From the sequence record NC_025447.1: a stretch of 64,000 nucleotides of DNA; one strand, 5' to 3'. Below, piece after piece: positions 2,033 through 15,060 of the stretch; the first letter of the stretch is position 1, and every line of letters begins with the position of its first letter. Source of the DNA: Escherichia phage 121Q. Below the pieces are notes generated by a model, which was not told the origin of the DNA, ran no database searches, and saw only the letters and a list, made by a program, of their open reading frames with translations. The translations under genes were made by a program, and so were the position numbers.

Positions 2033-2106
2033 AATTCCCTCCTTTATTCATTATACTATATTTAATACAAAAAAGAAAAGCCAGTATCAAGTACTGGCAT
2101 ATCAAA
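2033..2106. repeat. 74-bp intergenic repeat, copy 2
   Basis: Identical to 816-889. Confidence 0.85.
2064..2098 (-). terminator. Rho-independent terminator (minus strand) after gene 2107-3255
   Basis: Same hairpin plus U-run as 852-881. Confidence 0.6.
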
Positions 2107-3255
2107 TCACTGCAAAAATGACATATCGACTTCGGTATAATTAAGAACGTTCTGTCCAGCAATACCTCCCATTACTACAATTGAAGCCCCACAATAATAT
2201 AACTTCGAAGTGTCAGTAAGTATAAGTGAACCAGATGGGGTGCGTACCAAATTACACGAAGTATTAAACGAAGTATATGAAGGGGTATAAGAGTACTGAT
2301 TAATATTATTACCAACACCTAATTGACCAGACGAGTTGCTTCCAGATGCATAAAGTACTTCATCACCTTTAACTATATGTGACGCCATGTTACCAACACA
2401 AGTATATAAACTATAAACTCCTGAACTCAATAATGTTGGAGTTTTGTATTGTATATCTGTAGATGAAGAAGTACCACCTGTGCCAAATTCGTTCCCGTAT
2501 TGTGCACCGAACTGTTTACCACAAGCGTACAAATTATTATCCGATTTAATAAAAAATGTACTCTGATAACTGACATTACAATCTATAACATCCGAAGAAA
2601 TCATCGTCACCCCAGTAATAGAAGTTTGATTGCCTGTACCTAACTGATAGTAATAGTTAAAACCACAACCCCATAAAGTATTATCTTCTTTTAGGTATAT
2701 GTTACCAACTGCCTTTTTAACCGAAGTTATAGTATCTACCCTTTTGAATGTGTTAAAAGAATTAATGTTTGTACCATCACCAAATGATGATAGGTTAGAG
2801 TTATTGTTAGCTCCACAACAATACAATGTACCATCGTTTGTTATCAAATTTACCTTCATATCATTAAAACTACTCATGTATTTTATATCAGAAACATTAA
2901 TACCACCTGATGTTATCCATGTAGTACAGTCCGTCCACAAAGTTTTTCTATCAGTTACACCAGTGAATGCCTTCGTGTTGCCAGTGATAAAAACTTTTCC
3001 CGTACCTTTCTCTTCGTACAATTGACAATCACTACTGTTATCTTCCAATAGAACTCGTTTAACATTCTCCGCACAAAGAATAAATTTACTCGATGCTACA
3101 CCTGTTCCAGTACCCCAATTCGTCGCAGAAGATGCATACAACTTATCAGTATAAGTATCATGAAGATACATGGAATCACTGGAATATATTTTAAAACGTC
3201 CATCATCACCAGGGGCAATATTCCCGTACTTAACCATTCTTGCAAAAGGTAACAT
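2107..3255 (-). CDS. RCC1-like repeat (beta-propeller) protein, paralog C
   Basis: ORF track gives 2107-3291; start trimmed to the Met of MLPFARMVKYGN (rc ATG 3253-3255), which has the same SD context as the paralogs; blades such as YASGSNSSGQLGVGN and WGCGFNYYYQLGTGN. Confidence 0.7.
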   Translation of the reverse strand: MLPFARMVKYGNIAPGDDGRFKIYSSDSMYLHDTYTDKLYASSATNWGTGTGVASSKFILCAENVKRVLLEDNSSDCQLYEEKGTGKVFITGNTKAFTGVTDRKTLWTDCTTWITSGGINVSDIKYMSSFNDMKVNLITNDGTLYCCGANNNSNLSSFGDGTNINSFNTFKRVDTITSVKKAVGNIYLKEDNTLWGCGFNYYYQLGTGNQTSITGVTMISSDVIDCNVSYQSTFFIKSDNNLYACGKQFGAQYGNEFGTGGTSSSTDIQYKTPTLLSSGVYSLYTCVGNMASHIVKGDEVLYASGSNSSGQLGVGNNINQYSYTPSYTSFNTSCNLVRTPSGSLILTDTSKLYYCGASIVVMGGIAGQNVLNYTEVDMSFLQ

Positions 3256-3303
3256 AATTCCCTCCTTATTCATTATATCATATTTACCCAATAAAGAAAA
3301 CCC

Positions 3304-3332
3304 TTGACATCCTTTCAGTACTGTTGTACTAT
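3304..3332 (+). promoter_or_regulatory. sigma70-like promoter for small-gene array 1
   Basis: TTGACA, 17-nt spacer containing CAGTACTG, TACTAT; divergent from the RCC1 genes. Confidence 0.55.
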
Positions 3333-3357
3333 AGAAGGAATATAAGGAGAACTACAC

Positions 3358-3585
3358 ATGACAAATACTCTTAAGTACTACCTCAATACTCTAAATGAAC
3401 TAGAGTACGGGGAGTTTCTCTCGGATAGTTCGTGGCTAATTGAGCTAAAAAATTATAATAGTCCAGGATGCACCCTTATGATGAACAATGCAATTGATAC
3501 CCTCATTGTGAGTATTTTACACAGCAACATCTGCGGGGATAGCAATAAACAATTATCAAAAATCTTAGTACTGCTATCTATATGA
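3358..3585 (+). CDS. family-1 small protein (~60-75 aa tandem paralog)
   Basis: SD AAGGAG; first gene of array. Confidence 0.6.
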   Translation: MTNTLKYYLNTLNELEYGEFLSDSSWLIELKNYNSPGCTLMMNNAIDTLIVSILHSNICGDSNKQLSKILVLLSI

Positions 3586-3785
3586 ATATCGAACAGTACT
3601 ACATCGATGCACTACCAACAAAAGGTCTACGAGAAAGCCTACTGTATACACAAAATACTATTATACACTACAAACGTTGTCCTAAACTCCTGAACTCGTA
3701 CAGGAATAATATCATAAGAAATGCTTTACAAGGGGCAGAAAGTATGCAATACTATTATATCCTTGCCCTTTTAATCGAGTACTAA
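3582..3785 (+). CDS. family-1 small protein
   Basis: ATGA stop/start overlap; C-terminus ...LALLIEY. Confidence 0.6.
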   Translation: MNIEQYYIDALPTKGLRESLLYTQNTIIHYKRCPKLLNSYRNNIIRNALQGAESMQYYYILALLIEY

Positions 3786-3786
3786 T

Positions 3787-3996
3787 ATGAATACTGAACA
3801 TAAAGAATTCTACACCAAATACCTTAGCAACGAAGAACAATTGTTTCTAAGGAGTGTATCACCTTTAAGTATAGATACACCACACGCCAGAGATTGCTTT
3901 AATAATTGTATACGTAGTACTCTAGAAGCAATCGAATGTAATAACAAAAATATTATGTACTCTGGTTTAATAGGACTAATATATTTCTATGAATAA
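3787..3996 (+). CDS. family-1 small protein
   Basis: N-terminus MNTEHKEFY; abuts previous stop. Confidence 0.6.
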   Translation: MNTEHKEFYTKYLSNEEQLFLRSVSPLSIDTPHARDCFNNCIRSTLEAIECNNKNIMYSGLIGLIYFYE

Positions 3997-4183
3997 TCAT
4001 AAAGATTTCTATTGTAGTAAACTACCCAAACAAGAACAGCTATCATTCTCTTTAGCACCACCTATGAGAAAGGATAATCTGTATTATAATTACGATTTCA
4101 GGATGGTGACACGTTATGCAATAGAACATACGTTCCCTGCAACTAAGTACCGCTCTATCCTGAACCTCATCTTTAAGTTCTAA
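3989..4183 (+). CDS. family-1 small protein
   Basis: N-terminus MNNHKDFY; overlaps previous gene end. Confidence 0.6.
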   Translation: MNNHKDFYCSKLPKQEQLSFSLAPPMRKDNLYYNYDFRMVTRYAIEHTFPATKYRSILNLIFKF

Positions 4184-4235
4184 AAGGTACACCAGGGACC
4201 GAGTACTTTAATATAGTAAGGCTAATTACATTATA

Positions 4236-4421
4236 ATGAATCATATAAGCTACTACTACCAACAACTATCCGACAGAGACAAGTACAGTCACAACTCCCA
4301 TGTGTGGTACTACAAACGCGGCAGTATAAGAGACAAACAACATTACTTCTGTATTTCTATTAAAGAAGCACTAACAACTAAGTACACGTACCGAGCAGTA
4401 CTTAAACTTATTGAAATGTAA
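4236..4421 (+). CDS. family-1 small protein
   Basis: Array member; C-terminus KLIEM. Confidence 0.55.
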   Translation: MNHISYYYQQLSDRDKYSHNSHVWYYKRGSIRDKQHYFCISIKEALTTKYTYRAVLKLIEM

Positions 4422-4429
4422 GGAAGAAA

Positions 4430-4612
4430 ATGAATATAGAATTCTATTTAACTAAACTACAACACGCCGAAAGATTCAACTTCAATAAGTTCAATATTTT
4501 CTACAATTGCGGGAACAAAAAAGATAAACACACCTTCCTATATGTCGTCACAAGAGATGCACAAAACGAAAAGTACACATACAGAGAAGTAATGAAACTA
4601 ATCGCTATTTAA
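4430..4612 (+). CDS. family-1 small protein
   Basis: Array member; C-terminus MKLIAI. Confidence 0.55.
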   Translation: MNIEFYLTKLQHAERFNFNKFNIFYNCGNKKDKHTFLYVVTRDAQNEKYTYREVMKLIAI

Positions 4613-4620
4613 GGAATACT

Positions 4621-4800
4621 ATGCAACAATTCTATATAGAACGTATAACCATAAAAGACCGTTTCATGTACGACACCTTCGTTGATTACTACAACCTAGG
4701 AACAAAAAGTACTAAAAATATTAATCTCAATAGCTGCATTTATGCTGTACTAACACAAGATAATCCCTACAGGGAAATCCTCGCACTGGCATCTATATAA
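4621..4800 (+). CDS. family-1 small protein (59 aa, below ORF-track cutoff)
   Basis: ATG 4621 after SD AAGGAA; translated by hand MQQFYIERITIKD...ILALASI; fills a gap in the array. Confidence 0.5.
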   Translation: MQQFYIERITIKDRFMYDTFVDYYNLGTKSTKNINLNSCIYAVLTQDNPYREILALASI

Positions 4801-4810
4801 AGGAAACCAA

Positions 4811-5482
4811 ATGAAACTTAATGCACACAGCAAACAATACCTTAAGCACTTTAAGTACCTCAATAGTATTCAGGCAGAATCCGTTACATCTGCATATACG
4901 TATCACCCGAATGTACTAAAGAAACGAAATAAAAAGGAAAAATCCAGTACAAATGGAGTTAACGTATCAAAGAACCTTGAATTGTACATGAAGAAAAATA
5001 ATATAGCTGTTCATTATATGAATATCTATAATACTGATTTAAAAGTATTGAGTACTAATACGAGCACGAAGGTACTAAAGAACGCATCCTTCATCATCAA
5101 TATGCAGTTGGATAATACCCCGTGCACTTTAATGCTATACTTCGGGAATACATACTTCTTCGGGAATTGTAACACCTCCCACGATGTCAATACAGCACAA
5201 TTCCAAATGGGTGGCATATACTCTACTGATGCAGAAAAAGTACACGAGAATATGCACTTCTGGCAAGCACAACGTACAGAAGAAACTAAATCAATTGTAG
5301 ATTTCCTCAAAGAACTAGAACACAAAGAACTACAGGAAGAAGAACTATTCATGTACAGTACTGTAATCGATAATCCAGTACTCTATAAAAACGCGTACAA
5401 TCTGACAAAACATGTACAGGAAATTATCAGTACTAATAAGAAAATGCATCACCTCATTACGTATATTACAAACTATGTATAA
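4811..5482 (+). CDS. hypothetical protein (223 aa) embedded in array 1
   Basis: Long ORF; SD AAGGAAACC; no family motif recognised. Confidence 0.55.
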   Translation: MKLNAHSKQYLKHFKYLNSIQAESVTSAYTYHPNVLKKRNKKEKSSTNGVNVSKNLELYMKKNNIAVHYMNIYNTDLKVLSTNTSTKVLKNASFIINMQLDNTPCTLMLYFGNTYFFGNCNTSHDVNTAQFQMGGIYSTDAEKVHENMHFWQAQRTEETKSIVDFLKELEHKELQEEELFMYSTVIDNPVLYKNAYNLTKHVQEIISTNKKMHHLITYITNYV

Positions 5483-5657
5483 AGAATACTATATCTCTAA
5501 ACTACCCGTGCAGCAAAAATACTTTGCTGCATACAAAGTTCTTCTCATAACTCGTGCCGCTCGATCTAACTACATGAATAGCGTAAAACGTGCTATAGAA
5601 AATGATGACGCAATGAACCAGTACTATAACATTTTACTACTAATATATAAGTACTAA
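5475..5657 (+). CDS. family-1 small protein
   Basis: Start trimmed from 5412 to MYKEYYISKLP, overlapping the stop of the previous gene. Confidence 0.55.
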   Translation: MYKEYYISKLPVQQKYFAAYKVLLITRAARSNYMNSVKRAIENDDAMNQYYNILLLIYKY

Positions 5658-5667
5658 AGAGAACAAC

Positions 5668-5850
5668 ATGCACAAAGAATACTACAGGGATAAAATACCT
5701 ATGCATCTCCAGCACCATATACCAACAGAACCAATAGGAATAAAAGATCACGCAAAGATAATGTTCCAACAATGTACTAAGTACACGCTCATATACGATG
5801 ATAATCCATATATGCTGTACTACGTAGTAATGCTAACATTCAGGTACTAA
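5668..5850 (+). CDS. family-1 small protein
   Basis: MHKEYY...MLTFRY. Confidence 0.6.
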   Translation: MHKEYYRDKIPMHLQHHIPTEPIGIKDHAKIMFQQCTKYTLIYDDNPYMLYYVVMLTFRY

Positions 5851-5851
5851 T

Positions 5852-6043
5852 ATGAATAACCACAAAGAATACTACATAGAGAAACTCCCAATGTATCTCC
5901 AACACCTTGTACCAACAGAACCATTGGGTATAGAAAAAAACTACGAAAAAGACTACTTCATTCAGTGCACTAAATCCTCGATATATATTGAAGACTATAA
6001 TCGAGTACTGTATCACATCCTTTTACTAATATATAAGTACTAA
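5852..6043 (+). CDS. family-1 small protein
   Basis: MNNHKEYY...LLLIYKY. Confidence 0.6.
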   Translation: MNNHKEYYIEKLPMYLQHLVPTEPLGIEKNYEKDYFIQCTKSSIYIEDYNRVLYHILLLIYKY

Positions 6044-6044
6044 T

Positions 6045-6227
6045 ATGCACAAAGAATACTACACACAATTTCTCCCCAGCATTTTTGAACACTACGCCAG
6101 ATATAAAGTCCCTCTGGATAACGATTTGGCAGTACTGGGATTCAATAACTGCATAGAACGAAGTATAGAAAATAGTAGTAGTTATGACCAGCTATATAAC
6201 ACTATCCTACTTATATTCAGGTACTAA
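6045..6227 (+). CDS. family-1 small protein
   Basis: MHKEYY...ILLIFRY. Confidence 0.6.
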   Translation: MHKEYYTQFLPSIFEHYARYKVPLDNDLAVLGFNNCIERSIENSSSYDQLYNTILLIFRY

Positions 6228-6228
6228 C

Positions 6229-6417
6229 ATGCATAAAGAATACTACACAAAATATTTCCCAATGTACCTCAGAACTAATCTATTAGATAAACCTCGCGGT
6301 ATCAATGCACAAAATGATAAAGTGTATTTTACTATGTGCACTAAAGCATGTATACTAGATTTTGACAGCTACCATCGAGTACTGTATCATACCCTGTACC
6401 TAGCTTTCGTATTCTAA
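6229..6417 (+). CDS. family-1 small protein
   Basis: Start trimmed from 6184 to MHKEYYTKYFP, immediately after previous stop. Confidence 0.6.
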   Translation: MHKEYYTKYFPMYLRTNLLDKPRGINAQNDKVYFTMCTKACILDFDSYHRVLYHTLYLAFVF

Positions 6418-6426
6418 GAGAACAAT

Positions 6427-6612
6427 ATGCATAAAGAATTCTACTTAAGCCATCTGGATCTAAACTCCCAAATGCTTATACCACTAATCCCAATAGATAT
6501 CAAGGATAAGAAAAATACCGAACAATTCATTTACCATACACAGTGTGCGATCACCCCAAATTACATTCCATATGAATTGTACTACATTCTCGCCCTAATA
6601 TATAGGTACTAA
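6427..6612 (+). CDS. family-1 small protein
   Basis: MHKEFY...LALIYRY. Confidence 0.6.
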   Translation: MHKEFYLSHLDLNSQMLIPLIPIDIKDKKNTEQFIYHTQCAITPNYIPYELYYILALIYRY

Positions 6613-6613
6613 T

Positions 6614-6799
6614 ATGCATAGAGAATACTACACACAATTTGTTAAAGGGAACTACAAACATGCCGTACCCAGAACCCCTTTAAATTCTCATGACCCAAGT
6701 ACTATATTCTTGTTTAATGACGCAATACGTACAGTACTCAATACTAAAGATGAAGATGTGCAGTACGTATTCTTACTATTACTTATATACAGACACTAA
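6614..6799 (+). CDS. family-1 small protein
   Basis: MHREYY...LLLIYRH. Confidence 0.6.
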   Translation: MHREYYTQFVKGNYKHAVPRTPLNSHDPSTIFLFNDAIRTVLNTKDEDVQYVFLLLLIYRH

Positions 6800-6804
6800 C
6801 TAAT

Positions 6805-6987
6805 ATGAATAAAGAACATAAAGAATTCTATATAAGAAAACTAACATTCGTCCCCGTAAGAATATATAAAGAATGCGACCCAAGATTATACCTATGGCAC
6901 TTCAATGAGTGCATAAAAGATTCTATATACCCTAAGAACTATAAAGAACAATTGTGCTCAGTACTAACACTAGTACTATCATATTAA
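6805..6987 (+). CDS. family-1 small protein
   Basis: MNKEHKEFY...TLVLSY. Confidence 0.6.
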   Translation: MNKEHKEFYIRKLTFVPVRIYKECDPRLYLWHFNECIKDSIYPKNYKEQLCSVLTLVLSY

Positions 6988-7002
6988 TTAATAGAGAATA
7001 CT

Positions 7003-7194
7003 ATGTATAAAAACTTCTATATAAGTAAACTAAAAGAAAATGAACAAGTATGGATTAGATCTATAATTCCACTGGCATTTAATAGATATGCATTTAACAG
7101 ATGTACCGAGATTGCTATAGACCCTTATAATATTAAAGAGAATGTACAGTATAATCAGTACTACTATATCTTAATGCTTATATATAGGAAGTAA
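7003..7194 (+). CDS. family-1 small protein (last of array)
   Basis: MYKNFYISKL...LMLIYRK. Confidence 0.6.
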   Translation: MYKNFYISKLKENEQVWIRSIIPLAFNRYAFNRCTEIAIDPYNIKENVQYNQYYYILMLIYRK

Positions 7195-7289
7195 TTAAAC
7201 ACAAGTAGACAGGGGAAGCTCCTAGTGAACAACCTTTATGTACAGGCGAATTGTTAAAATTCAGCCTGGACAAATGCGATCACTAGGAT

Positions 7290-7400
7290 TCTCCCCAGGC
7301 TAAACCCCGTAATCATAGGTAGTCATAAGTAATCATATATAAACATTTAAGTAATCATTTATAATCACTGTAGTGATCAGTAGTGATCAGTAGTGAGTAC
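7290..7400. repeat. Cluster of short direct repeats (GTAATCA x4; AGTAGTGA x3)
   Basis: cgtaatcatagg...agtaatcatatat...agtaatcattta...gtagtgatcagtagtgatcagtagtgagtact. Confidence 0.6.
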
Positions 7401-7821
7401 TAGAGTACAGGAATGTTCACGTTTAATCAAGAACGTAGCAGTACTGATATGCCACTAAGTAGGCAGAGGAAGTCTGCCGTACTTTGTAGTTTCCAAGCTC
7501 CTTTTCCATTTTGCAAATTACATCAAATGTAATCAAAAGTAATCACGCAATGATTAGTACTGAATTATTACTTTCACCTTAATTTCAATTACCCCTTTAC
7601 CCTTCGGGGTAAAATTCAATTACCCCTTGAGGCTCCAGCAAAAAGTTGGTTAGTACTCCATCCTAAATCTCGATCCTAAAAATTTTGGAGTACCTATGAA
7701 ATAAAAGTTGGATCTTCGAAAGTTGAAATTTACGTTGGGACATATAGGATTTGTGGGATATAATGAGTTTTGTAGCGATACAGATTATACGATTTCAGTA
7801 CTGAATAATGAAAGAAAGCTA

Positions 7822-7849
7822 TTGACATTATGATTCAGTACTGTATAAT
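7822..7849 (+). promoter_or_regulatory. sigma70-like promoter with no obvious downstream ORF (possible non-coding transcript)
   Basis: TTGACA, 16-nt spacer containing CAGTACTG, TATAAT; no SD plus ORF of useful length follows. Confidence 0.4.
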
Positions 7850-8033
7850 GTTCTACATAGAGAGATGAGTTGCTGCGAACAATTCATTTACTCTACCTCC
7901 TGTCGTGAGACAGTACAGAAAAGATAGTTCCTCCTGTGGTGGTACATCTTTTTGAACCTCATATGAAAATCGTAATAACAGTACTGATATTAACAGAATG
8001 GTGTCAGTACTGATTTTAATCTAAAGCATTATG

Positions 8034-8053
8034 CCACCAGCTTGTGCTGGTGG
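8034..8053. repeat. Perfect hairpin carrying Chi in both orientations
   Basis: CCACCAGC-TTGT-GCTGGTGG. Confidence 0.6.
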
Positions 8054-8209
8054 ATTCCCTCTAACAGTATTCAGTACTACATGATAGTCTTCATCCTCCT
8101 ACAGTAACAGTGAGGGCTATTGTGGCAGTACTGAATACTCCCTTTCAAAAGATAGATCTATGGTATAGTACTGACGGATTTTGGGCGTAGTAACCCTAGG
8201 TTGAATTTA

Positions 8210-8355
8210 GACGTAGAGATGTCTAGACCTCCAGATGGCTGGAAGTAAAGATGGCTATCCCTCTAGGCGGCTGGATGGCTAGATTTCTAGATGGCTGTAC
8301 TGCTAGACGTTTGGACGGCTAAACGGCTAGATGGTTACACGTCTGGATGTATAGA
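8210..8355. repeat. Iteron-like array of short degenerate repeats (approx. CTRGAYGGCT), followed by an A/T-rich tract
   Basis: agatggct x4, gacggct x2, ggctag x3, tctaga/gtctagac palindromes within ~140 bp; then aaatcaaaatttttattttatttttt. Confidence 0.55.
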
Positions 8356-8520
8356 CGGCTAAATCAAAATTTTTATTTTATTTTTTCCAATAGTTCCCCT
8401 ACCGCGTGGGGATGGTTTCCCCGCAGTATCTGGAGTTAGATTTTTCTGAATCTGGAATCATTATCCCCGTTTTCGCCTGGTATGTCAACCGTCTGGATGA
8501 ATAATTTTAAAAAATAATCT

Positions 8521-8580
8521 AGTACTGAATTTTGGGCGTAACTATGCACCCGGTGGGCTAGAGTCTTTCTCGACTTGATA
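8521..8580. repeat. ~60-bp direct repeat, copy 1 (partner 8739-8800)
   Basis: agtactgaattttgggcgtaactatgcacccggtgggctagagtctttctcg versus tactgaattttgggcgtaattccgcaccccctggggtatccgctttctcg; both contain a degenerate inverted CCCAC-GGGTGC box. Confidence 0.5.
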
Positions 8581-8738
8581 AAAATATTATAGCAGTACTG
8601 AATTATAAAAGCAATAGCCTGGATGTAAAAAGTTTTAATTAATTTGCTTGTCATCCTGGGGCGTACTATGGTACTATGATTCAGTACTGAGAAAGTGCTA
8701 TGACCTGCTAAGGTGCGGGAGTGTATCCTTTTTAAATT

Positions 8739-8800
8739 TACTGAATTTTGGGCGTAATTCCGCACCCCCTGGGGTATCCGCTTTCTCGCGTCTATGTAGT
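8739..8800. repeat. ~60-bp direct repeat, copy 2
   Basis: See 8521-8580. Confidence 0.5.
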
Positions 8801-8893
8801 AATTATACGCTTTTTTAGTACTGAGTCAATAGCTAAAAACAAAATAATTGAAAATAATTTAACGCGTTTAAACGGCCCGTAAAGCCCTGGTTA

Positions 8894-8901
8894 GCTGGTG
8901 G
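8894..8901 (+). other. Chi octamer GCTGGTGG
   Basis: Exact match, intergenic. Confidence 0.6.
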
Positions 8902-9076
8902 CGGTGCAAATGTATAGCTTAGGTGTATTAATGCGTTAGAATGCGATTGAGGACGTTTTACGGGGTATAGTACTGATTCAGTACTGAATAGTAGTACTGA
9001 AAGATTGTTCTCCCTGGATTGTTCCAGTACTCCTATATAGAAAGAAAACTATTTTAAAAGTATTTGTAGAAAGTAC

Positions 9077-9104
9077 TTGCAAAGTATTGGGAAAGGTGTA
9101 GAAT
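9077..9104 (+). promoter_or_regulatory. early-type sigma70 promoter with leader hairpin
   Basis: aAAGTACTTGCAA, 16-nt spacer, TAGAAT; hairpin ACGGGGG..CTCCCGT at ~9118-9137. Confidence 0.55.
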
Positions 9105-9160
9105 GTTTTACATCGAGACGGGGGAAACGCTCCCGTTGCACTTTAAAAGAGATTAAAACG

Positions 9161-9523
9161 ATGGCGACTCAAATCAATACTATCATGCTTAACCTGGTTT
9201 CTTTCCGTGAAGAGATGAAAGATCTTCCCGCTGAGACTGTACGGATTCACATTGCAGCTTATCGGGAATTGATTGCAATGCTGCCGCTTAAGCGTGAACA
9301 GTATGCCGCTACTGCTATGCTCGATGCAATGATCCATAAGATGATCCAGACTGATTTAACGATGGCTTATCAGTACATGGGCGAAATGTTTGCAGTGTAT
9401 AGCAAGCCAGTACCAGGAATGGAAAGTACAGAAGTATTGCACGGCTTAAACTTAAAACAAGATGCATGGGATAATATGCCTCGTTTCCTGGTATGGGCTG
9501 ACAGTGGCAAGATTTACGAATAA
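9161..9523 (+). CDS. hypothetical protein (120 aa)
   Basis: Start trimmed from 9077 to ATG 9161 (MATQINTIM), downstream of promoter and hairpin. Confidence 0.6.
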   Translation: MATQINTIMLNLVSFREEMKDLPAETVRIHIAAYRELIAMLPLKREQYAATAMLDAMIHKMIQTDLTMAYQYMGEMFAVYSKPVPGMESTEVLHGLNLKQDAWDNMPRFLVWADSGKIYE

Positions 9524-9537
9524 GTTTAATAAAGTAC

Positions 9538-9565
9538 TTGCAAACTAAGTTTAAAAGCGTATAAT
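9538..9565 (+). promoter_or_regulatory. early-type promoter with leader hairpin
   Basis: TTGCAA, 16-nt spacer, TATAAT; hairpin GTGGGGAA..TTCCCCAC 9578-9596. Confidence 0.6.
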
Positions 9566-9617
9566 GTTTTATATCAGGTGGGGAATAGTTCCCCACTATA
9601 ATAAAGAGGATTTAAAA

Positions 9618-9857
9618 ATGGCTAAATCAAAAATGTTCTTAGGACACAAAAACAAAACTCATTGGAATGTTTCCTTATGGATTAATAATGACGAATCATT
9701 ATACCGGTTGGCCCAGGACTTTATTGCCGCTAACACTAATCGTAATGATGCGGCCCGTCATATGATGCTATTTTTAGAACAGACTGGACAAGATAAAACT
9801 CCAGACGGCTTTAAGTATAGCACTACTGCGATCCGTGCGGCGATGGTTGGAATGTAA
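9618..9857 (+). CDS. hypothetical protein (79 aa)
   Basis: ATG 9618 after SD AAAGAGGA; MAKSKMF... Confidence 0.65.
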   Translation: MAKSKMFLGHKNKTHWNVSLWINNDESLYRLAQDFIAANTNRNDAARHMMLFLEQTGQDKTPDGFKYSTTAIRAAMVGM

Positions 9858-9875
9858 GAGAATAGATTAAAAGTA

Positions 9876-9903
9876 CTATTGCACGGTGATAGTACTTTAT
9901 AAT
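9876..9903 (+). promoter_or_regulatory. promoter-like element (deletion variant of the 21921 promoter)
   Basis: aaagtactattgcacggtgatagtactttataat; -35 degenerate. Confidence 0.35.
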
Positions 9904-9940
9904 AAAGTTCTTTTTGTACAACAACGATAGGGGTAACAGC

Positions 9941-10207
9941 ATGACTATTACATATTTTGCAACGCGTGAACTTGCTCGGATTGCCGCACGCCAGGACGGG
10001 GCGACGTTTAAAGATATGGGCGTACAATCTGAACGTGGTAAACGTTGGGCCGTAGTAAAGCAAAGTACAGCCCGATCAATTCAGTACTGGCGAGCGGCTT
10101 TAAAGCGTCCTGATAGTGTATCGCGTCGCGTGGTAGAAATAAAGCACGACCGCAAGGGCAATCGCGTTACCGTGTACCGTACTAAAAAGATTGCAGTACT
10201 TGAATAA
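9941..10207 (+). CDS. hypothetical protein; paralog of 21998-22393
   Basis: MTITYFATRELARIAAR...HDRKGNRVTVY shared with 21998 protein (MITKFFATREQARIVAR...HDRKGNRVTVY); start trimmed to ATG 9941. Confidence 0.65.
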   Translation: MTITYFATRELARIAARQDGATFKDMGVQSERGKRWAVVKQSTARSIQYWRAALKRPDSVSRRVVEIKHDRKGNRVTVYRTKKIAVLE

Positions 10208-10214
10208 AAAGTAC

Positions 10215-10242
10215 TTGCAAACTATGTTTAATGGCGTATAAT
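10215..10242 (+). promoter_or_regulatory. early-type promoter with leader hairpin
   Basis: TTGCAA, 16-nt spacer, TATAAT; hairpin GCGGGAA-CAC-TTCCCGC 10257-10273. Confidence 0.6.
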
Positions 10243-10294
10243 GTTTTACATCGAGAGCGGGAACACTTCCCGCCTATAACCTGGAGTAATAAAA

Positions 10295-10525
10295 ATGACT
10301 AATATGTATATGACTGAAGTTAAAACCGTAAAAGATACTACCACGAATAAAACTACTTACTTACAGCGGATCTGCGGTGTATGGCAACGTATCAGCAAAT
10401 CAAAGTACTTTAAATTAACATCATATGCCAATCGTTCGGATTCATTCAGTACTGAAATAAAAGGTAATAAAGTACACCAATACGGCACTTATTATTATTA
10501 TAGCCTGGACGCGATTGCAGTATAA
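10295..10525 (+). CDS. hypothetical protein (76 aa)
   Basis: SD CTGGAGT; ATG 10295. Confidence 0.65.
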   Translation: MTNMYMTEVKTVKDTTTNKTTYLQRICGVWQRISKSKYFKLTSYANRSDSFSTEIKGNKVHQYGTYYYYSLDAIAV

Positions 10526-10555
10526 GTAGTTTACAAATCTTTACAATTGCCAGTA

Positions 10556-10584
10556 TTGACTTATTTTGTCAGTACTGGCATAAT
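10556..10584 (+). promoter_or_regulatory. promoter (rightward) of convergent pair flanking box element
   Basis: TTGACT, 17-nt spacer containing CAGTACTGG, CATAAT. Confidence 0.5.
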
Positions 10585-10607
10585 GTATCTATTGAAACGA
10601 ACAATTT

Positions 10608-10683
10608 GGCCCACGGGGTGCGGGAGTGTATCTATAGAAAAAGTAGTTTATTACAGTTACAATTGTGCACCCGGTGGGTTAGC
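10608..10683. repeat. Inverted pair of the 'CCCACNGGGTGC' box (candidate small structured RNA)
   Basis: ggcccacggggtgcgggagtgtatctatag ... tgtgcacccggtgggttagc: ~12-bp imperfect arms around a ~45-nt loop. Confidence 0.45.
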
Positions 10684-10699
10684 TGTTGTCATGGGGTAT

Positions 10700-10728
10700 A
10701 TTATGCCAGTACTTGATAATGCTGTCAA
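10700..10728 (-). promoter_or_regulatory. promoter (leftward) of convergent pair
   Basis: Minus strand reads TTGACA, 17-nt spacer, CATAAT (plus strand attatg...tgtcaa). Confidence 0.5.
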
Positions 10729-10775
10729 TACTTTTTTTTTACTATTCAGTACTGAAAACTATTTTTAAAAAGTAC

Positions 10776-10803
10776 TTGCAAACTATGTTTAAAGGCGTAT
10801 AAT
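10776..10803 (+). promoter_or_regulatory. early-type promoter (first of tandem pair)
   Basis: TTGCAA, 16-nt spacer, TATAAT; followed by conserved ~85-nt leader also present at 20777-20862. Confidence 0.55.
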
Positions 10804-10893
10804 GTTTTACATCAGGACGGGGAATGAAATAAGTAACTCCCTGTTAAGTAGTCCAGGAGTAAGACATACGAAAACCTCCCCTGATAAAATAGT

Positions 10894-10921
10894 TTGACAA
10901 AGATTTATAAAAGCGTATAAT
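10894..10921 (+). promoter_or_regulatory. early-type promoter (second of tandem pair)
   Basis: TTGACA, 16-nt spacer, TATAAT. Confidence 0.55.
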
Positions 10922-10953
10922 ACTTACATCAACTACTGAATGAGGGTTACAAA

Positions 10954-11565
10954 ATGAAAACTATCACTACTACTACTTTCGTTATGGCTTTTTCTGAACT
11001 GAACGCAGAACAACAAACGGCGGCTATCGAACTGGTTCGGGATCGGGAACGTGCAAGTGAGGATAATTTCTTTGCTGAGTCAGTACTGGAATACTATAAA
11101 GAAACAGTACTACCAGAATACGGCATAGATGAAGCTGAATTGCAATACAGTGGTTTTTGGTCGCAAGGTGACGGTGCATCAATCAGTACTGACCACGTTG
11201 ACGCTGAGAAGTTTTTACGCAAGGTTAAGGCGTTAACGAAATATCGTTCCATCCGTCACCTGTTGAACGAAGATGATTTGGAAATGAGTGTAGAACGTTC
11301 CCAATCGCGTTATGCACACGAAAACACGGTAGGCGGTTGCGTTGATACTCGCTACACTGATTTAACTGTAAAACAGGCGGCGTTAGCTGAGGAACTGGAA
11401 AATTTACTGACTGACACGATCCGAGAATTATCTTGTAAGCTGTACCGTGATTTAGAAAATGCTTATGAAGACCAGTTTACTACTGAAAACATTGTAGGAC
11501 TGATTGAGGGTAACGAATATCAATTTAATGTTATCGATGGTGTAGTAGAATCTATCGCATATTAA
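10954..11565 (+). CDS. hypothetical acidic protein (203 aa)
   Basis: SD GAGGGT; long ORF with even codon structure; acidic composition. Confidence 0.7.
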   Translation: MKTITTTTFVMAFSELNAEQQTAAIELVRDRERASEDNFFAESVLEYYKETVLPEYGIDEAELQYSGFWSQGDGASISTDHVDAEKFLRKVKALTKYRSIRHLLNEDDLEMSVERSQSRYAHENTVGGCVDTRYTDLTVKQAALAEELENLLTDTIRELSCKLYRDLENAYEDQFTTENIVGLIEGNEYQFNVIDGVVESIAY

Positions 11566-11623
11566 TTCAGTACTGAATCACTGGCGGGGAATGGTTCCCG
11601 CCTATATCCCAGGAGTAAGAGAA

Positions 11624-11860
11624 ATGATCGAACAAATCAAAACTACAACGCCAAACGTAACGGGTACAGTATCACACTTCATTGGTGACGATTCGCGGGG
11701 CGTTCCTTATTGTGCAGTACATGTAAACAAAAATGGCGACTACTGGCTAACGGTTTACGGTTCTTATTCTTTCGGGCGTAGTGCACACCAAAAGATCCTG
11801 GATAAAGTACAACCAACGGGTAAAAATATCACCGCTGAGATGTTTTATAAAAAGCACTAA
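11624..11860 (+). CDS. hypothetical protein (78 aa)
   Basis: Start trimmed to ATG 11624 after SD CCAGGAGTAAGAG; preceded by hairpin GGCGGGGAATGGTTCCCGCC. Confidence 0.6.
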   Translation: MIEQIKTTTPNVTGTVSHFIGDDSRGVPYCAVHVNKNGDYWLTVYGSYSFGRSAHQKILDKVQPTGKNITAEMFYKKH

Positions 11861-11867
11861 AAAGTAC

Positions 11868-11895
11868 TTGCAAAGTAATTAGATTAACGTATAAT
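11868..11895 (+). promoter_or_regulatory. early-type promoter with leader hairpin
   Basis: TTGCAA, 16-nt spacer, TATAAT; hairpin 11910-11926. Confidence 0.6.
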
Positions 11896-11945
11896 ACTTT
11901 ATATCGAGAGCGGGAATAGTTCCCGCCTTTACTGAGGATTATCTA

Positions 11946-12230
11946 ATGGGTAAAGTAATTAACTATACAGTACTAAGCAAGTCATTATCTATTAGCCAGT
12001 GCACCGATGGTTTTTGGCTGTACGATGAAACGCGTGGCATGAATTTAGCTATGCAGGAGAAAACTACTGATGCGGCATATCTTAAAGCACTGGAATACTA
12101 CCAGAAGCGTTTAAAGGAAGTAGAAAACGATTATAATAACCTGAAAGCGAAAGTAGATCATTTCGTCGGTCAATTCATTGACGATGACGAGGACGGGCAC
12201 TACTGCGACCGTTGCGGATCTTACAATTGA
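11946..12230 (+). CDS. hypothetical protein (94 aa)
   Basis: SD CTGAGGAT; ATG 11946. Confidence 0.65.
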   Translation: MGKVINYTVLSKSLSISQCTDGFWLYDETRGMNLAMQEKTTDAAYLKALEYYQKRLKEVENDYNNLKAKVDHFVGQFIDDDEDGHYCDRCGSYN

Positions 12231-12247
12231 GTACTGAGGATTATCTA

Positions 12248-12451
12248 ATGAGTGATTTAATTAAACGTATCAAAGAGCTTGAAGAAAAAGAATTGCAGTT
12301 GATCGGGTTACGGAATAAAGTATTCCATGATTTAGGTGGCTTCATTAATGCCTGGGATAGTGGCGATCCTGATGCGTTACCTGCTAACCGCCAGGCGATG
12401 ATCAATGATGTGCGTGGTGTCTTTGATTATGTTTTAAAGCAATTAAATTAA
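12248..12451 (+). CDS. hypothetical protein (67 aa)
   Basis: Start trimmed to ATG 12248; duplicated SD context actgaggattatctaatg as at 11946. Confidence 0.6.
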   Translation: MSDLIKRIKELEEKELQLIGLRNKVFHDLGGFINAWDSGDPDALPANRQAMINDVRGVFDYVLKQLN

Positions 12452-12459
12452 AAAAGTAC

Positions 12460-12487
12460 TTGCAATTAGTTTTCAGTACTGTATAAT
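12460..12487 (+). promoter_or_regulatory. early-type promoter with leader hairpin
   Basis: TTGCAA, 16-nt spacer (ttagttttcagtactg), TATAAT; hairpin ~12500-12518. Confidence 0.6.
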
Positions 12488-12537
12488 AGTTTACATCAAG
12501 GGGGAAATGGTTCTCCCCACTAATAAGGAGTTTTACA

Positions 12538-12759
12538 ATGGCTAATATCACTACTCTTTCCCAGCTTGAAGCACTGGTTAAATCTATGCGGGAACATGCC
12601 GACAATATCGGCGTAGAAGATCCGGCTGTATGTTTTTGCGACGAAATAAATGATGATACGCTCGTCATTGCAGAAGTACAAGACGTTTCTAACTATTCAT
12701 CGCGTTACACTGGCGGCGTAGCAAAGAAAGGTGATTTTTGTTTATATCTTACTAAGTAA
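12538..12759 (+). CDS. hypothetical protein (73 aa)
   Basis: SD TAAGGAG; MANITTL... Confidence 0.65.
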   Translation: MANITTLSQLEALVKSMREHADNIGVEDPAVCFCDEINDDTLVIAEVQDVSNYSSRYTGGVAKKGDFCLYLTK

Positions 12760-12766
12760 TAACCAG

Positions 12767-12792
12767 GGGGATCAAACGATCCCCTTTATTTT
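12767..12792 (+). terminator. Rho-independent terminator
   Basis: GGGGATC-AAAC-GATCCCC followed by TTTATTTT. Confidence 0.6.
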
Positions 12793-12818
12793 GCAGTACT
12801 GAATCATTTAATAGACGG

Positions 12819-12850
12819 ATCTATGCACCCTGTGGGTTAGTGACTATCTC
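12819..12850 (-). repeat. 'CCCACAGGGTGCA' box element, minus orientation, downstream of minus-strand promoter
   Basis: Plus strand atctatgcaccctgtgggttagtgactatctc is the reverse complement of the box seen at 16977. Confidence 0.5.
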
Positions 12851-12864
12851 GTCTTTATGTAGGT

Positions 12865-12893
12865 ATTATGCCAGTACTGGATGCAGTTGTCAA
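12865..12893 (-). promoter_or_regulatory. minus-strand promoter driving the box element
   Basis: Minus strand TTGACA, 17-nt spacer, CATAAT; transcript would end at the 12767-12792 hairpin. Confidence 0.5.
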
Positions 12894-12927
12894 GACTTTT
12901 TTTTCAAATACTTTTATATTAAAGTAC

Positions 12928-12955
12928 TTGATAATAGTTTTTAAACGCGTATAAT
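12928..12955 (+). promoter_or_regulatory. early-type promoter
   Basis: TTGATA, 16-nt spacer, TATAAT. Confidence 0.5.
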
Positions 12956-13005
12956 GTTTTACATCTAATCGGGAATACTCCCTAGTACTAACAAAGGATA
13001 TACAA

Positions 13006-13305
13006 ATGAAAACTGCAATCATCGCCCTGGCTTTATCTGTTTCCTCTTTCGCTGTTAACGCTTCCGTTGATGTACAGAAAGAAAAATTCATTCAGTGCAC
13101 TGTTGCAATGACTAACGAGGAAACGGCTGAGATCGTTACCAAATCCCTGGAACTGGCCCCTGCAATGTTTGCTAATGGCCCGTACCATGAAGAAGATGAT
13201 CAGGGTAGCACGACCATCTATTACGATGCAAAAAGTAAACGCGGTTCTGTCACTGTAATGGATACAGAGAAAGTTACATTCACTGGCGTAATTAATTGTT
13301 TATAA
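13006..13305 (+). CDS. small secreted/periplasmic protein (99 aa)
   Basis: N-terminus MKTAIIALALSVSSFAVNA-S resembles a Sec signal peptide; SD AAAGGA. Confidence 0.6.
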   Translation: MKTAIIALALSVSSFAVNASVDVQKEKFIQCTVAMTNEETAEIVTKSLELAPAMFANGPYHEEDDQGSTTIYYDAKSKRGSVTVMDTEKVTFTGVINCL

Positions 13306-13323
13306 TATAGTACTGAATCACTA

Positions 13324-13352
13324 GCCCACTATAAGGAGTGGGCTTTTTTTAT
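13324..13352 (+). terminator. Rho-independent terminator
   Basis: AGCCCACT..AGTGGGCT followed by TTTTTTT. Confidence 0.7.
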
Positions 13353-13401
13353 TGTAGGATTGTAGTACTGGTATACTTTGAAAATAGTTTTAAAAAAGTA
13401 G

Positions 13402-13429
13402 TTGACATTACCAGGGAAAAGCGTAGAAT
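13402..13429 (+). promoter_or_regulatory. early-type promoter
   Basis: TTGACA, 16-nt spacer, TAGAAT. Confidence 0.55.
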
Positions 13430-13543
13430 GTATTACATCAAGACGGGGAACATTAAGTAGACCGCCAGTAAGTCGAATGAAAAACTGGACACGTCAAACA
13501 AACTTTGATAAACTAACTTAAACTTTAATTGAGGATTTATAAA

Positions 13544-14026
13544 ATGGCTAATGTAAAATCATTTCTGAAAGCACTGATTTCTAACGATACTGTCATTGCT
13601 GCTGAATTGCTGGCTGACCTGGATAATGATACCATGAAAGCAGTACGCAACAATTTTAACATTGCTTACAGTGAAGCGAAAGAACTACAAGCCAAAAAGG
13701 TAGCAGAACTGGAAGAACAGAAAAAAGCCCGTGAAGCAGAACTGCAAGCAACAATAGAAAGTATTCAGGCGGCGGTGTCTGGTTTAGATCTGGAAGTGGT
13801 TATTGAAATGGCACATAAAGCCCTGGCGGTTAAGTACGGTGAAGATAAGCCGGAATCTAAGCCTAAAAAATGGATTCAAGAACGTGTTACGGTTGTCCTT
13901 GATAACGGGGAAGAACATTTGATTCCTGTACGCGGTAACTGCATTGCGGTAGTACTGGATGCTATCAAAGAAAGCGGTATGACTCGCGAGGAATGGATCG
14001 AATCTCACCGCAAAATTGAAGCATAA
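13544..14026 (+). CDS. hypothetical protein (160 aa), coiled-coil-rich
   Basis: Start trimmed to ATG 13544 (MANVKSF) after SD GAGGAT. Confidence 0.65.
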   Translation: MANVKSFLKALISNDTVIAAELLADLDNDTMKAVRNNFNIAYSEAKELQAKKVAELEEQKKAREAELQATIESIQAAVSGLDLEVVIEMAHKALAVKYGEDKPESKPKKWIQERVTVVLDNGEEHLIPVRGNCIAVVLDAIKESGMTREEWIESHRKIEA

Positions 14027-14047
14027 CATTTAAAGTACTGAATCACT

Positions 14048-14074
14048 AGCCCACTTATACAGTGGGCTTTTTTG
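14048..14074 (+). terminator. Rho-independent terminator
   Basis: AGCCCACT-TATAC-AGTGGGCT followed by TTTTTTG. Confidence 0.7.
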
Positions 14075-14154
14075 TGTCTATAGTATTCCATGCCGTCAGC
14101 ACCTCATAGAATCGATTCTAACGCATTAAACTGATTATCTGATGCATCGCCCTA

Positions 14155-14162
14155 GCTGGTGG
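14155..14162 (+). other. Chi octamer GCTGGTGG
   Basis: Exact match, intergenic, next to repeated cgttagaatgcgattgag element. Confidence 0.6.
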
Positions 14163-14227
14163 AGTTAAGGCCGTTAGAATGCGATTGAGAGCGTTTAAAG
14201 TATTTTGCAAAAAGTAATAAAAAGTAC

Positions 14228-14255
14228 TTGCACGATTCAGAGATTAGCGTATAAT
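14228..14255 (+). promoter_or_regulatory. early-type promoter
   Basis: TTGCAC, 16-nt spacer, TATAAT. Confidence 0.55.
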
Positions 14256-14300
14256 GTTTTACATCAAGGCGAAACACCTTAACTAACTGAGGATATAAAG

Positions 14301-14453
14301 ATGAATACTTATGAACTGGATTGTTTCACGTTACAAGTAATGTCAGTATGCAGCAAGAAAGATTGGTCATCAAAGGAATTTAAAGCAGTTATTGCGTGTG
14401 CAAAACACGGCAAGACTATCAATGAAACGGCATCAATCATTGATAAACTTTAA
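14301..14453 (+). CDS. hypothetical small protein (50 aa; below ORF-track cutoff)
   Basis: SD CTGAGGAT then ATG 14301; MNTYELDCFTLQVMSV... Confidence 0.5.
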   Translation: MNTYELDCFTLQVMSVCSKKDWSSKEFKAVIACAKHGKTINETASIIDKL

Positions 14454-14461
14454 AAAATAGT

Positions 14462-14489
14462 TTGACAATAGTTTTAAGTACTGTATAAT
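14462..14489 (+). promoter_or_regulatory. early-type promoter
   Basis: TTGACA, 16-nt spacer (atagttttaagtactg), TATAAT. Confidence 0.6.
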
Positions 14490-14522
14490 ATTTTACATCA
14501 ACTACTGAGAAGGATTTAAAAA

Positions 14523-14750
14523 ATGGCTATCATCATCACTTACGTATCTGGCACTACTGGCACTTCTAGCACTGTTGCAGTACTGACCAACAAGAAAGGT
14601 GCGGAACTTCATTCTGCAATGAATACCTGGGCGGTGAATGAGTTCGGTCAGTGGGCTAGTGTAGAATACATTGAAACCTATCAAGTGCCGTCTATTAGCT
14701 TAACTGATTTAGGTGTAGATCGTATCCTTTGCCTGGATGAATTAAACTAA
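14523..14750 (+). CDS. hypothetical protein (75 aa)
   Basis: SD GAGAAGGA; MAIIITYVSG... Confidence 0.65.
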   Translation: MAIIITYVSGTTGTSSTVAVLTNKKGAELHSAMNTWAVNEFGQWASVEYIETYQVPSISLTDLGVDRILCLDELN

Positions 14751-14766
14751 AAAGTACTTGCAAAGT

Positions 14767-14794
14767 AAATCGGATAAAGTATAATACATTACAT
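14767..14794 (+). promoter_or_regulatory. early-type promoter with leader hairpin
   Basis: TTGCAA, 16-nt spacer, TATAAT; hairpin GGGGAGAA-ATGA-TTCTCCCC 14807-14826. Confidence 0.6.
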
Positions 14795-14835
14795 CAAGGG
14801 GAGAAATGATTCTCCCCACTAAGAGGAAACTAAAA

Positions 14836-14979: not shown

Positions 14980-14998
14980 AATTATTATCACAGTACTA

Positions 14999-15027
14999 TT
15001 GACATAGTTTGATAGTACTGGCATAAT
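14999..15027 (+). promoter_or_regulatory. early-type promoter (variant 2)
   Basis: TTGACA, 17-nt spacer (tagtttgatagtactgg), CATAAT. Confidence 0.55.
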
Positions 15028-15060
15028 AGATTTTATCAAGACAACTAAGAGGAAACAATA

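Follow-up and report, generated by a model that had tools for sequence, protein, structure and literature searches.

A gene-free region of jumbo phage 121Q as a probable genome-end leader carrying a MetJ-operator-like octamer array

Escherichia phage 121Q (NC_025447.1) carries a gene-free stretch at positions 7195–9076 of the 64,000-nt window of its genome that was analyzed here and that supplies all coordinates given below. We conclude, with a probability of roughly 0.7, that this stretch joins the unique DNA of an Asteriusvirus jumbo phage to its left terminal repeat and includes a conserved cis-acting leader, and that it contains no classical iteron origin of replication. A preliminary description of the same DNA had proposed a candidate replication origin or control region. 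The "iterons" noted there are best read, on their sequence, as an outsized array of operator sites for the methionine repressor MetJ.

Comparison with relatives places the terminase cut that makes the left physical end of the genome between 7457 and 7458, inside the gene-free region. This placement rests on the identity of a 40-nt cut context with related phages. Seven independently deposited relatives (G17 and six from different laboratories) begin exactly at the base homologous to 7458, and the last bases of the G17 record, when reverse-complemented, read AGTAGGCAGAGGAAGTCTGCCG, which is the window sequence from 7458 onward. One record starting at the position equivalent to 7458 carries the annotation "Direct Terminal Repeats 1..21525". 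Records that are ~20 kb longer than the others hold the query (the 1.86-kb region) twice; in G17 the two copies lie 350,149 bp apart, which gives a terminal repeat of 20,668 bp. The ends of fEgEco12 were called by PhageTerm and confirmed by restriction digests, and repeats of ~20 kb have been published for Sharanji and G17. The right boundary of the repeat is located between 27638 and 27639, in a 220-bp intergenic gap (27487–27705), and the direct terminal repeat of 121Q thus spans 7458–27638 (20,181 bp). With these boundaries, 258 bp of the gene-free stretch belong to the end of the unique DNA and 1.6 kb to the start of the repeat. A fixed end base, a duplicated segment, and a conserved cut context together identify the site as the physical terminus of a long direct terminal repeat.

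The sequence around the cut is conserved in three to four genera. The 19 nt preceding it (CAGTACTGATATGCCACTA) are identical in Klebsiella phage Muenster, a member of another genus with ends likewise assigned by PhageTerm. GAP32 and CBB have CC(A/G)CTA at the equivalent position; this sequence, directly before the cut, and RAAGTC are both kept in GAP32, CBB, BF, and XbC2. RAAGTC occupies positions +12 to +17 after the cut in five genera. On the opposite strand, the right boundary reads GCTA before and AG after the junction in the window, in Muenster, and in CBB. The presence of CTA followed by AG at left and right boundaries indicates that both virion 5' ends start with AG after CTA. We infer that both ends are probably cut through a single recognition mode that is used in two orientations.

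Searching with the 1.86-kb query gave matches of 80–92% identity in 40 phage records, all of them from jumbo phages of E. coli or Salmonella in the PBECO4/121Q/G17 group (genus Asteriusvirus). The carefully annotated records among the relatives (G17, PBECO4, and phAPEC6) leave the region blank, and automated records fill it with tiny "hypothetical proteins". We agree with the preliminary description that no convincing open reading frame (ORF) is present. The longest encodes 109 amino acids from a GTG start and has an implausible sequence; it matches no Pfam or PHROG family, and its frame is broken by 1-nt insertions or deletions in relatives. Every ORF within 7195–9076 was discarded. A tRNA scan found no tRNA gene, and no credible Rfam match was obtained at the gathering threshold over the whole window or at E ≤ 5 over the region. 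The ORFs on either side are genuine phage genes. All of their PHROG families lack an assigned function, and one of the ORFs has a Pfam DUF. The first early promoter is at 9077–9104 and the first gene begins with an ATG at 9161. A noncoding stretch that is dense in conserved cis-elements and promoters and lies directly upstream of early genes is aptly called a control region, which was the second of the two labels first proposed for it.

Gene-free leaders of ~1.7 kb also precede the first real gene in CBB, BF, XbC2, pEa_SNUABM_12, and GAP32. Local alignments of these leaders to the window are collinear, and the order of the blocks is conserved in RaK2-like jumbo phages. Among 12 Asteriusvirus sequences, including the divergent relative EJP2 (72% identical overall), invariant columns make up 65%–95% of 7639–7715 and of all of 8409–8965. 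The block at 7639–7730 has 95% invariant columns in this set, and its equivalents in XbC2, GAP32, fENko-Kae01, and BF are 82%–93% identical and lie 54–134 nt from the respective termini. This block is a candidate packaging-recognition element. The positions of this and the other features are collected in Table 1.

Table 1. Features of the gene-free region of phage 121Q (window coordinates)
Feature	Position	Strand	Remarks
Last ~240 bp of unique genome	7200–7438		Fast-evolving short tandem repeats; variable or replaced among Asteriusvirus relatives (alignment)
Cut site and left end	7439–7480		CAGTACTGATATGCCACTA before the cut, AGTAGGCAGAGGAAGTCTGCCG after it; cut between 7457 and 7458
Noncoding 1.6-kb leader	7458–9060	+	Opens the 20,181-bp direct terminal repeat
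TTCG-loop hairpin	7596–7613	+	7-bp stem, flanked by a 31-nt direct repeat (7581–7642)
Most conserved terminus-proximal block	7639–7730		Inverted repeat GTACTCC/GGAGTAC around two ATCCTAAA repeats
Sigma-70 promoter	7822–7849	+	TTGACA-16-TATAAT, 12/12 consensus; CAGTACTG abuts the -10 hexamer
Candidate structured RNA R1, ~200 nt	7856–8056	+	Ends in the Chi hairpin; downstream of the 7822 promoter
Chi/anti-Chi hairpin	8034–8053		CCACCAGC-TTGT-GCTGGTGG; terminator-like stem
ATTTTGGGCGTA motif adjoining the array	8178–8189	+	Again at 8529 and 8745
Array of 19 tandem octamers (register AGAYGGCT), MetJ-operator-like	8209–8360		Strict 8-bp phase
T-rich tract, then CCAATAGTTCCCCTACCGCG (conserved), then hairpin	8361–8425		Stem covaries between genera
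Leftward sigma-70 promoter	8460–8488	-	TTGACA-17-GATAAT; points at the array and the genome end
Partial duplicate of R2 (8523–8591)	8523–8629	-	Own leftward promoter, 8629–8602
Promoter	8648–8677	+	TTGTCA-18-TACTAT; conserved as TTGACA-18-TACTAT in other genera
Candidate structured RNA R2, ~130 nt	8684–8816	+ (strand unsettled)	Long hairpin, 3' hairpin, T-run
Convergent promoter against R2	8829–8802	-	One of three conserved leftward promoters (8488, 8629, 8829)
T5-shared element GCGTTAGAATGCGAT-N4-GGACGTTTTA	8933–8960	+	28 nt, near-identical to T5 9270–9297
AGTACT cluster	8966–9031		Four palindromes, copy number variable; just upstream of the first early promoter

The repeats that had suggested an origin were initially counted as about eight degenerate units of ~10 bp at 8210–8355. 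An array is indeed located there, but it consists of 19 octamers in perfect 8-bp register. Its self-identity is 0.58–0.62 at lags of 8, 16, and 24, compared with ~0.17–0.2 at neighboring lags and 0.32 at lag 12, and in alignments its length differs among relatives by multiples of 8 bp. MetJ binds tandem 8-bp units with a CTAG junction. The array was scored with the information weight matrix and thresholds of a comparative study of the MetJ regulon, which requires at least two adjacent 8-bp boxes, each reaching at least a quarter of the consensus score and together at least the consensus score (PMC3228920). The single-box threshold is passed by 1% of random octamers, and by 16 of the 19 units in the phage array. 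Uninterrupted runs of 4, 4, and 7 boxes are present, and the total of 115.5 bits is to be compared with a threshold of 12.58 bits. In 30 shuffles of the window the best equivalent span scored 23 bits on average and 30 bits at most, and the maximum elsewhere in the 64-kb window is 14.3 bits.

Genuine operators were scored with the same code for calibration. The E. coli metJ/metB operator yields four boxes and 31.2 bits, and that of metF four boxes and 24.9 bits. The mean per box is 7.2 bits in the phage array, versus 6.2–7.8 bits in these two operators. The array shares with MetJ operators, whose consensus is AGACGTCT, the strict tandem arrangement of 8-bp units, the CTAG junction, and equal matrix scores per box. 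It differs in having 19 units instead of the four found in each of the two operators scored (it is ~4 times longer), and in its location, which is a phage terminal repeat and not the upstream region of a methionine gene. E. coli, the host, encodes metJ. The match of the array to a MetJ operator is solid at the level of sequence, and binding of MetJ in vivo is the most economical inference from it. A search of 50,697 phage records revealed no phage-encoded MetJ homolog, and no description of metboxes in phage genomes was found in the literature searched. A separate reading of the units as a CsrA sponge based on GGA motifs was dropped, since GGA occurs in only ~4 of the 19 units.

The same array is present in other phages. 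It lies 640–930 nt from the genome end in G17, CBB, BF, pEa_SNUABM_12, and XbC2, and it is also found in GAP32, fHe-Yen9-04, two metagenomic jumbo phages, and EJP2 (terminus unmapped). T5-like phages carry it as well, namely Vibrio phage Pontus and Aeromonas phage AhSzq-1 (at least 24 boxes, 192 bits). The T7-like coliphage PGT2, a podovirus, has nine in-phase metbox-like octamers (56 bits) 38–109 nt from its left end, and this array ends with AGACGTTT AGACGGCT AAAT, as do those of the CBB group. Wherever the location is known in the jumbo myoviruses and the T7-like podovirus, the array sits within about 1 kb of the start of the genome or record. The passing boxes of three lineages give a consensus identical to AGACGTCT. 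The hosts of 70 of 71 records with array-like matches are Enterobacterales, Vibrio, or Aeromonas, which are MetJ-bearing orders. A pattern scan of IMG/VR for further array-bearing lineages returned only eight loci, mostly from the phages already named. In Pontus (430–790), the array adjoins a motif resembling T5 direct repeat D, two perfect DnaA boxes, and a near-copy of such a box.

Phages of three unrelated families, all with exact terminal repeats, bear arrays of nine to more than 24 MetJ-type boxes: the RaK2-like jumbo myoviruses, the T5-like siphoviruses that infect Vibrio and Aeromonas, and the T7-like podoviruses. Such arrays might serve as a DNA decoy that captures the methionine repressor of the host. 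We propose this function tentatively and at less than even odds. MetJ would be captured from the moment the DNA end arrives in the cell and further as genome copies accumulate; synthesis of methionine and S-adenosylmethionine (SAM) would be derepressed as a result, or transcription near the end would be coupled to the level of SAM. Several findings weigh against a MetJ function for the array. The exceptional record among the 71 is XbC2, which bears the array and is recorded on Xanthomonas, a host that should lack MetJ. The array is also missing in some relatives that grow on MetJ-bearing hosts (the RaK2-like Muenster, fENko-Kae01, and T5). Its units are asymmetric, with G rather than T dominant at position 6, which is odd for a symmetric dimer; the G variant is present in about 10% of natural half-sites. 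Finally, natural met operators overlap promoters and the array overlaps none, the closest conserved promoter (8488, minus strand) beginning about 90 nt away.

Two of these points, the asymmetry of the units and the host recorded for XbC2, would fit an array bound instead by a protein of the phage itself, such as the small terminase subunit or an early protein of the ribbon-helix-helix type, in which case its likeness to metboxes would be a coincidence or mimicry. The positions of the arrays in the jumbo phages and PGT2 suggest an end-related role, and the final boxes common to CBB and PGT2 look as if a module had moved horizontally. Nevertheless, the three phage groups have no obvious protein in common, whereas their hosts have MetJ in common. 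The boxes also score as high as those of genuine operators and reach the exact MetJ consensus in some lineages, and MetJ is known to bind tandem sites spaced at 8 bp with a CTAG junction. We therefore regard a phage ligand as unlikely, even though it is the best of the alternatives, and retain MetJ as the preferred candidate.

The leader also contains a palindromic arrangement of Chi sites, as first reported, at 8034–8053. On the plus strand, Chi (GCTGGTGG) occurs nine times in the window, compared with 0.1 expected, and all nine copies are inside the terminal repeat (8046–25954); none was found in the remaining 44 kb. The minus strand has a single Chi, which is the one in the hairpin at 8034. 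RecBCD arriving from a nearby DNA end must meet the 3' side of 5'-GCTGGTGG-3'. By this rule the nine plus-strand sites face RecBCD coming from the right end, and the hairpin holds the only left-facing site, 576 bp from the left end. G17 has the same pattern of nine sites plus one at partly different positions, which suggests selection for the number and orientation of Chi sites. All closely related Asteriusvirus isolates that were examined (eight loci) keep the hairpin at a distance of 578–590 nt from the terminus, and it is present in Klebsiella phage fENko-Kae01 at 484; it is not conserved in the divergent EJP2. Some isolates have TTGT as the 4-nt loop of the hairpin (8042–8045) and others have its complement, ACAA, which looks like an inversion of the palindrome.

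Phage T5 provides the closest parallel to this region. In T5, an untranslated, repeat-rich region of 1.2 kb straddles the inner edge of the terminal repeat and has been proposed to carry the injection stop signal. As in this T5 region (repeat region 3), the 121Q stretch is kilobase-sized, free of genes, rich in repeats and palindromes, and positioned across the boundary of a long terminal repeat, with an overrun into unique DNA of 258 bp here and 270 bp in T5. Each region is more conserved than the neighboring genes, and both seem to gather sites for host proteins, DnaA boxes in T5 and metbox-like units in 121Q. They also have the 28-nt element at 8933–8960 in common. T5-like records among 365 query matches carry this element at 84%–94% identity, ~9.2–9.6 kb into the left terminal repeat where the repeat is annotated. 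Extra copies (CGTTAGAATGCG..) occur at 14171 and 18375 inside the 121Q repeat, each with a Chi site 8–46 nt upstream, and a Chi site at 8894 precedes the copy at 8933. A motif resembling direct repeat C of T5 is found in the leaders of sister genera. In BF (about 1020–1050), fHe-Yen9-04, and fENko-Kae01, the sequence GCGAATGAGAATCATT, which resembles that repeat (AAATGAGAATCATT), lies within the loop of an R2-like hairpin.

The two regions also differ. T5 has neither an octamer array nor a Chi hairpin, and the 121Q region lacks both the DnaA boxes, which in T5 are paired within inverted repeats, and the 15-bp D repeats. No tblastn hits to the T5 pre-early proteins (dmp, A1, A2, and others) were obtained in the window. 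The early genes of 121Q are all directed away from the region, unlike those of T5, and the shared element runs the opposite way relative to the boundary. Thus, by sequence, the region occupies the genomic niche of the T5 region and shares parts with it, yet it is not a collinear homolog. Concatemer-junction and packaging regions of phages with exact terminal repeats of the T7/T3 type likewise combine sequence-specific ends, short degenerate repeat arrays by the boundary, and strong host promoters near the end. These general traits of T7 recur in 121Q, but the T7/T3-type repeat is 160 bp rather than 20 kb and its repeat units are unrelated in sequence.

The resemblance to T5 raises the question of whether the region might control DNA entry, with proteins bound to the inner-edge copy in whichever repeat enters first pausing or gating transfer. 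The similar layout and overrun, the shared 28-nt element and the repeat C-like motif of the sister genera, and the occurrence of the octamer array at the equivalent place in T5-like phages of Vibrio and Aeromonas are all consistent with an injection stop, and the orientation of the Chi sites fits the right (far) end as the exposed, first-entering end. Even so, we consider such a signal improbable in 121Q. Homologs of A1, A2, and other pre-early proteins are missing from the window, the shared element is inverted relative to the boundary, two-step transfer has not been reported for these phages, and the T5 signal itself has not been mapped to a defined sequence.

Promoters in the region were judged by conservation. 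A scan recovered 10 candidates compared with 8.3 expected, and because this enrichment is not significant, only promoters with hexamers and spacing conserved in relatives were relied on. The promoter with no gene behind it at 7822–7849, which had been recognized from the start, matches the consensus at all 12 positions, and both hexamers are kept in seven of seven aligned relatives, EJP2 included. For the leftward promoter at 8488, the 17-nt spacer sequence is swapped in relatives while both hexamers and their spacing are retained.

Two candidate structured RNAs accompany these promoters. R1 has 55 base pairs in the RNAalifold consensus, with 95% of alignment cells paired. Twelve pairs survive changes on both sides, versus 2.5 ± 1.4 in shuffles and 1–6 when the partners are slid, and many G-U pairs favor the plus strand. 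The Chi hairpin looks like the terminator of a transcript from the 7822 promoter, and it is annotated as a terminator in the G17 record. Two facts count against R1: its covariation is supplied by two divergent sequences, and one helix amounts to a pair of palindromic CAGTACTG sites. In an alignment of nine sequences from four genera, R2 has 24 pairs with 88% of cells paired. Eleven of these are compensated on both sides, compared with 1–5 when slid, and the covariation score of 0.39 was reached by none of 500 shuffles.

Transcripts of this kind have a precedent in the related jumbo phage PA5oct, whose terminal repeat produces two highly expressed noncoding RNAs. PA5oct is a member of the same broader clade, its long terminal repeat is likewise packed with early genes, and its abundant transcripts lack ORFs. 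However, no sequence similarity to it was detected, and the RNAs of 121Q are candidates known from sequence. Could the whole region be a cluster of small noncoding RNA genes in which the DNA repeats are by-products? The conserved promoters, the covariation, and the PA5oct example speak for this idea, to which we give little chance. An RNA-based account of the full region, which the preliminary description had named as an outcome that would speak against an origin, is borne out in part: the candidates R1 and R2 together span no more than about 330 nt of the 1860. Outside them lie the array, the cut site, the 7639–7730 block, and the T5-shared element, and neither RNA has an Rfam match.

The least probable of the alternatives is a replication origin, either an iteron array with an A/T-rich tract, as first proposed, or a T4-style R-loop origin primed from a gene-less promoter (7822 or the leftward 8488), which retains a small probability on sequence alone. 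Iterons are several direct repeats of 17–22 bp in helical phase (about 11 or 22 bp). The 121Q units are only 8 bp long in strict 8-bp phase, and they match the matrix of a host operator. An A/T-rich tract follows the array at 8361–8387; it is short (27 bp), replaced in EJP2, and lower in A/T content in other genera. The region contains no DnaA box (TTATCCACA), and no initiator-like gene flanks it. The repeats, the tract, the promoters without ORFs, a cumulative GC-skew minimum near 7 kb, the T4-like replisome carried by these phages, and the perfect DnaA boxes beside the Pontus array could all be cited in favor of an origin; these features are outweighed by the geometry of the array, by the skew change coinciding with a compositionally odd paralog array without a clear strand switch, by the presence of a copy of the element at each end of the genome, and by the reported location of the T5 origins at the genome center, outside the terminal repeat.

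Further elements of the leader vary in their conservation. The UUCG hairpin was confirmed, at 7596–7613, a few bases from its first assignment (about 7592–7606); its deletion in CMSTMSU and its absence from EJP2 show that it is dispensable. The stem of the hairpin that follows the T-rich tract takes the forms GGGGA/TCCCC, CTGG/CCAG, CTAGT/ACTAG, and CTGGT/ACCAG across genera. ATTTTGGGCGTA is kept directly upstream of the array in CBB, GAP32, BF, and UViG355. The two direct repeats of ~60 bp reported at 8521 and 8739 begin at 8523 and 8739, and they are 69 nt long and 72% identical.

Short repeats in the unique DNA just before the cut differ in number from the first description. GTAATCA was thought to occur four times in 7290–7400, where three exact copies and one near-copy were found; repeats of this type span 7309–7367, with two further copies at 7529 and 7539. 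AGTAGTGA is present in exactly two copies instead of three, as part of a GTAGTGATCA tandem of 2.7 units (7370–7396). In alignments, AGTAGTGA is not conserved in most relatives, and GTAATCA is partly variable or absent. Both repeats were downgraded as possible terminase sites because of this poor conservation.

The count of ~19 AGTACT sites holds exactly for 7200–9060, although these sites are not special to the region. The 64-kb window has 265 copies where 21.5 are expected, a 12-fold excess, and their density is 10 per kb in the region, 6.7 per kb in the terminal repeat, and 4.1 per kb over the window. AGTACT is often extended to the palindrome TCAGTACTGA (e.g., at 7837, 8594, and 8980), and CAGTACTG has 61 copies in the window compared with 0.6 expected. 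Sites of this type are frequent in promoter spacers beside the -10 hexamer, or overlap the -35 hexamer as AGTACTTGCA; none occur in 27.6–31.5 kb and 34–41 kb. AGTACT is enriched 20- to 30-fold in the leaders of CBB, BF, XbC2, Muenster, and fENko-Kae01, and does not occur in T5 or Pontus. A phage regulator specific to the clade may act at this site.

The DNA on both sides of the region is densely organized. On the plus strand at 5412–7194 lies a tandem array of paralogous ORFs of ~60 amino acids, the last of which belongs to PHROG 11711. Its GC skew is negative and its AT skew strongly positive, unlike the plus-strand early genes beyond 9 kb. Modules of 60–100 bp that resemble the early promoter region at 9010–9110 are repeated at 10195, 10755, 11858, 17025, 20727, 24018, and 26713. 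Right after the terminal repeat, at 27706–31044, is a second dense array of ORFs (53–97 amino acids) with almost no intergenic space and no AGTACT.

Taken as the leader of a genome end, the region could be a multipurpose cis-acting segment for events at the DNA end. The context of the cut site and the 7639–7730 block would serve packaging recognition. The Chi hairpin and the nine co-oriented Chi sites would convert RecBCD, entering from either end, from a nuclease to a recombinase loader. The conserved promoters of host type would drive the two small structured RNAs as well as leftward transcription toward the end. Host MetJ, with SAM as its corepressor, would bind the 19 octamers, and the bound array could be a decoy, with derepressed synthesis of methionine and SAM as the result, a roadblock that senses SAM, or both.

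These findings permit a conserved gap in all genomes of PBECO4/121Q-like phages, so far left blank or labeled a possible origin, to be re-annotated as a genome end with its leader, which should be useful for engineering or recircularizing these candidates for phage therapy. They supply a concrete cut-site motif for phages with long exact terminal repeats, a poorly understood packaging class. In addition, they link the untranslated repeat region of T5 to equivalents in jumbo phages and suggest a general "end leader" that gathers sites for host factors. The packing of Chi sites in one direction within the terminal repeat offers a testable answer to the question of how such phages survive RecBCD. 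If the MetJ reading is true, the array would represent a new route of host takeover, in which a repressor is disarmed by DNA instead of by protein.

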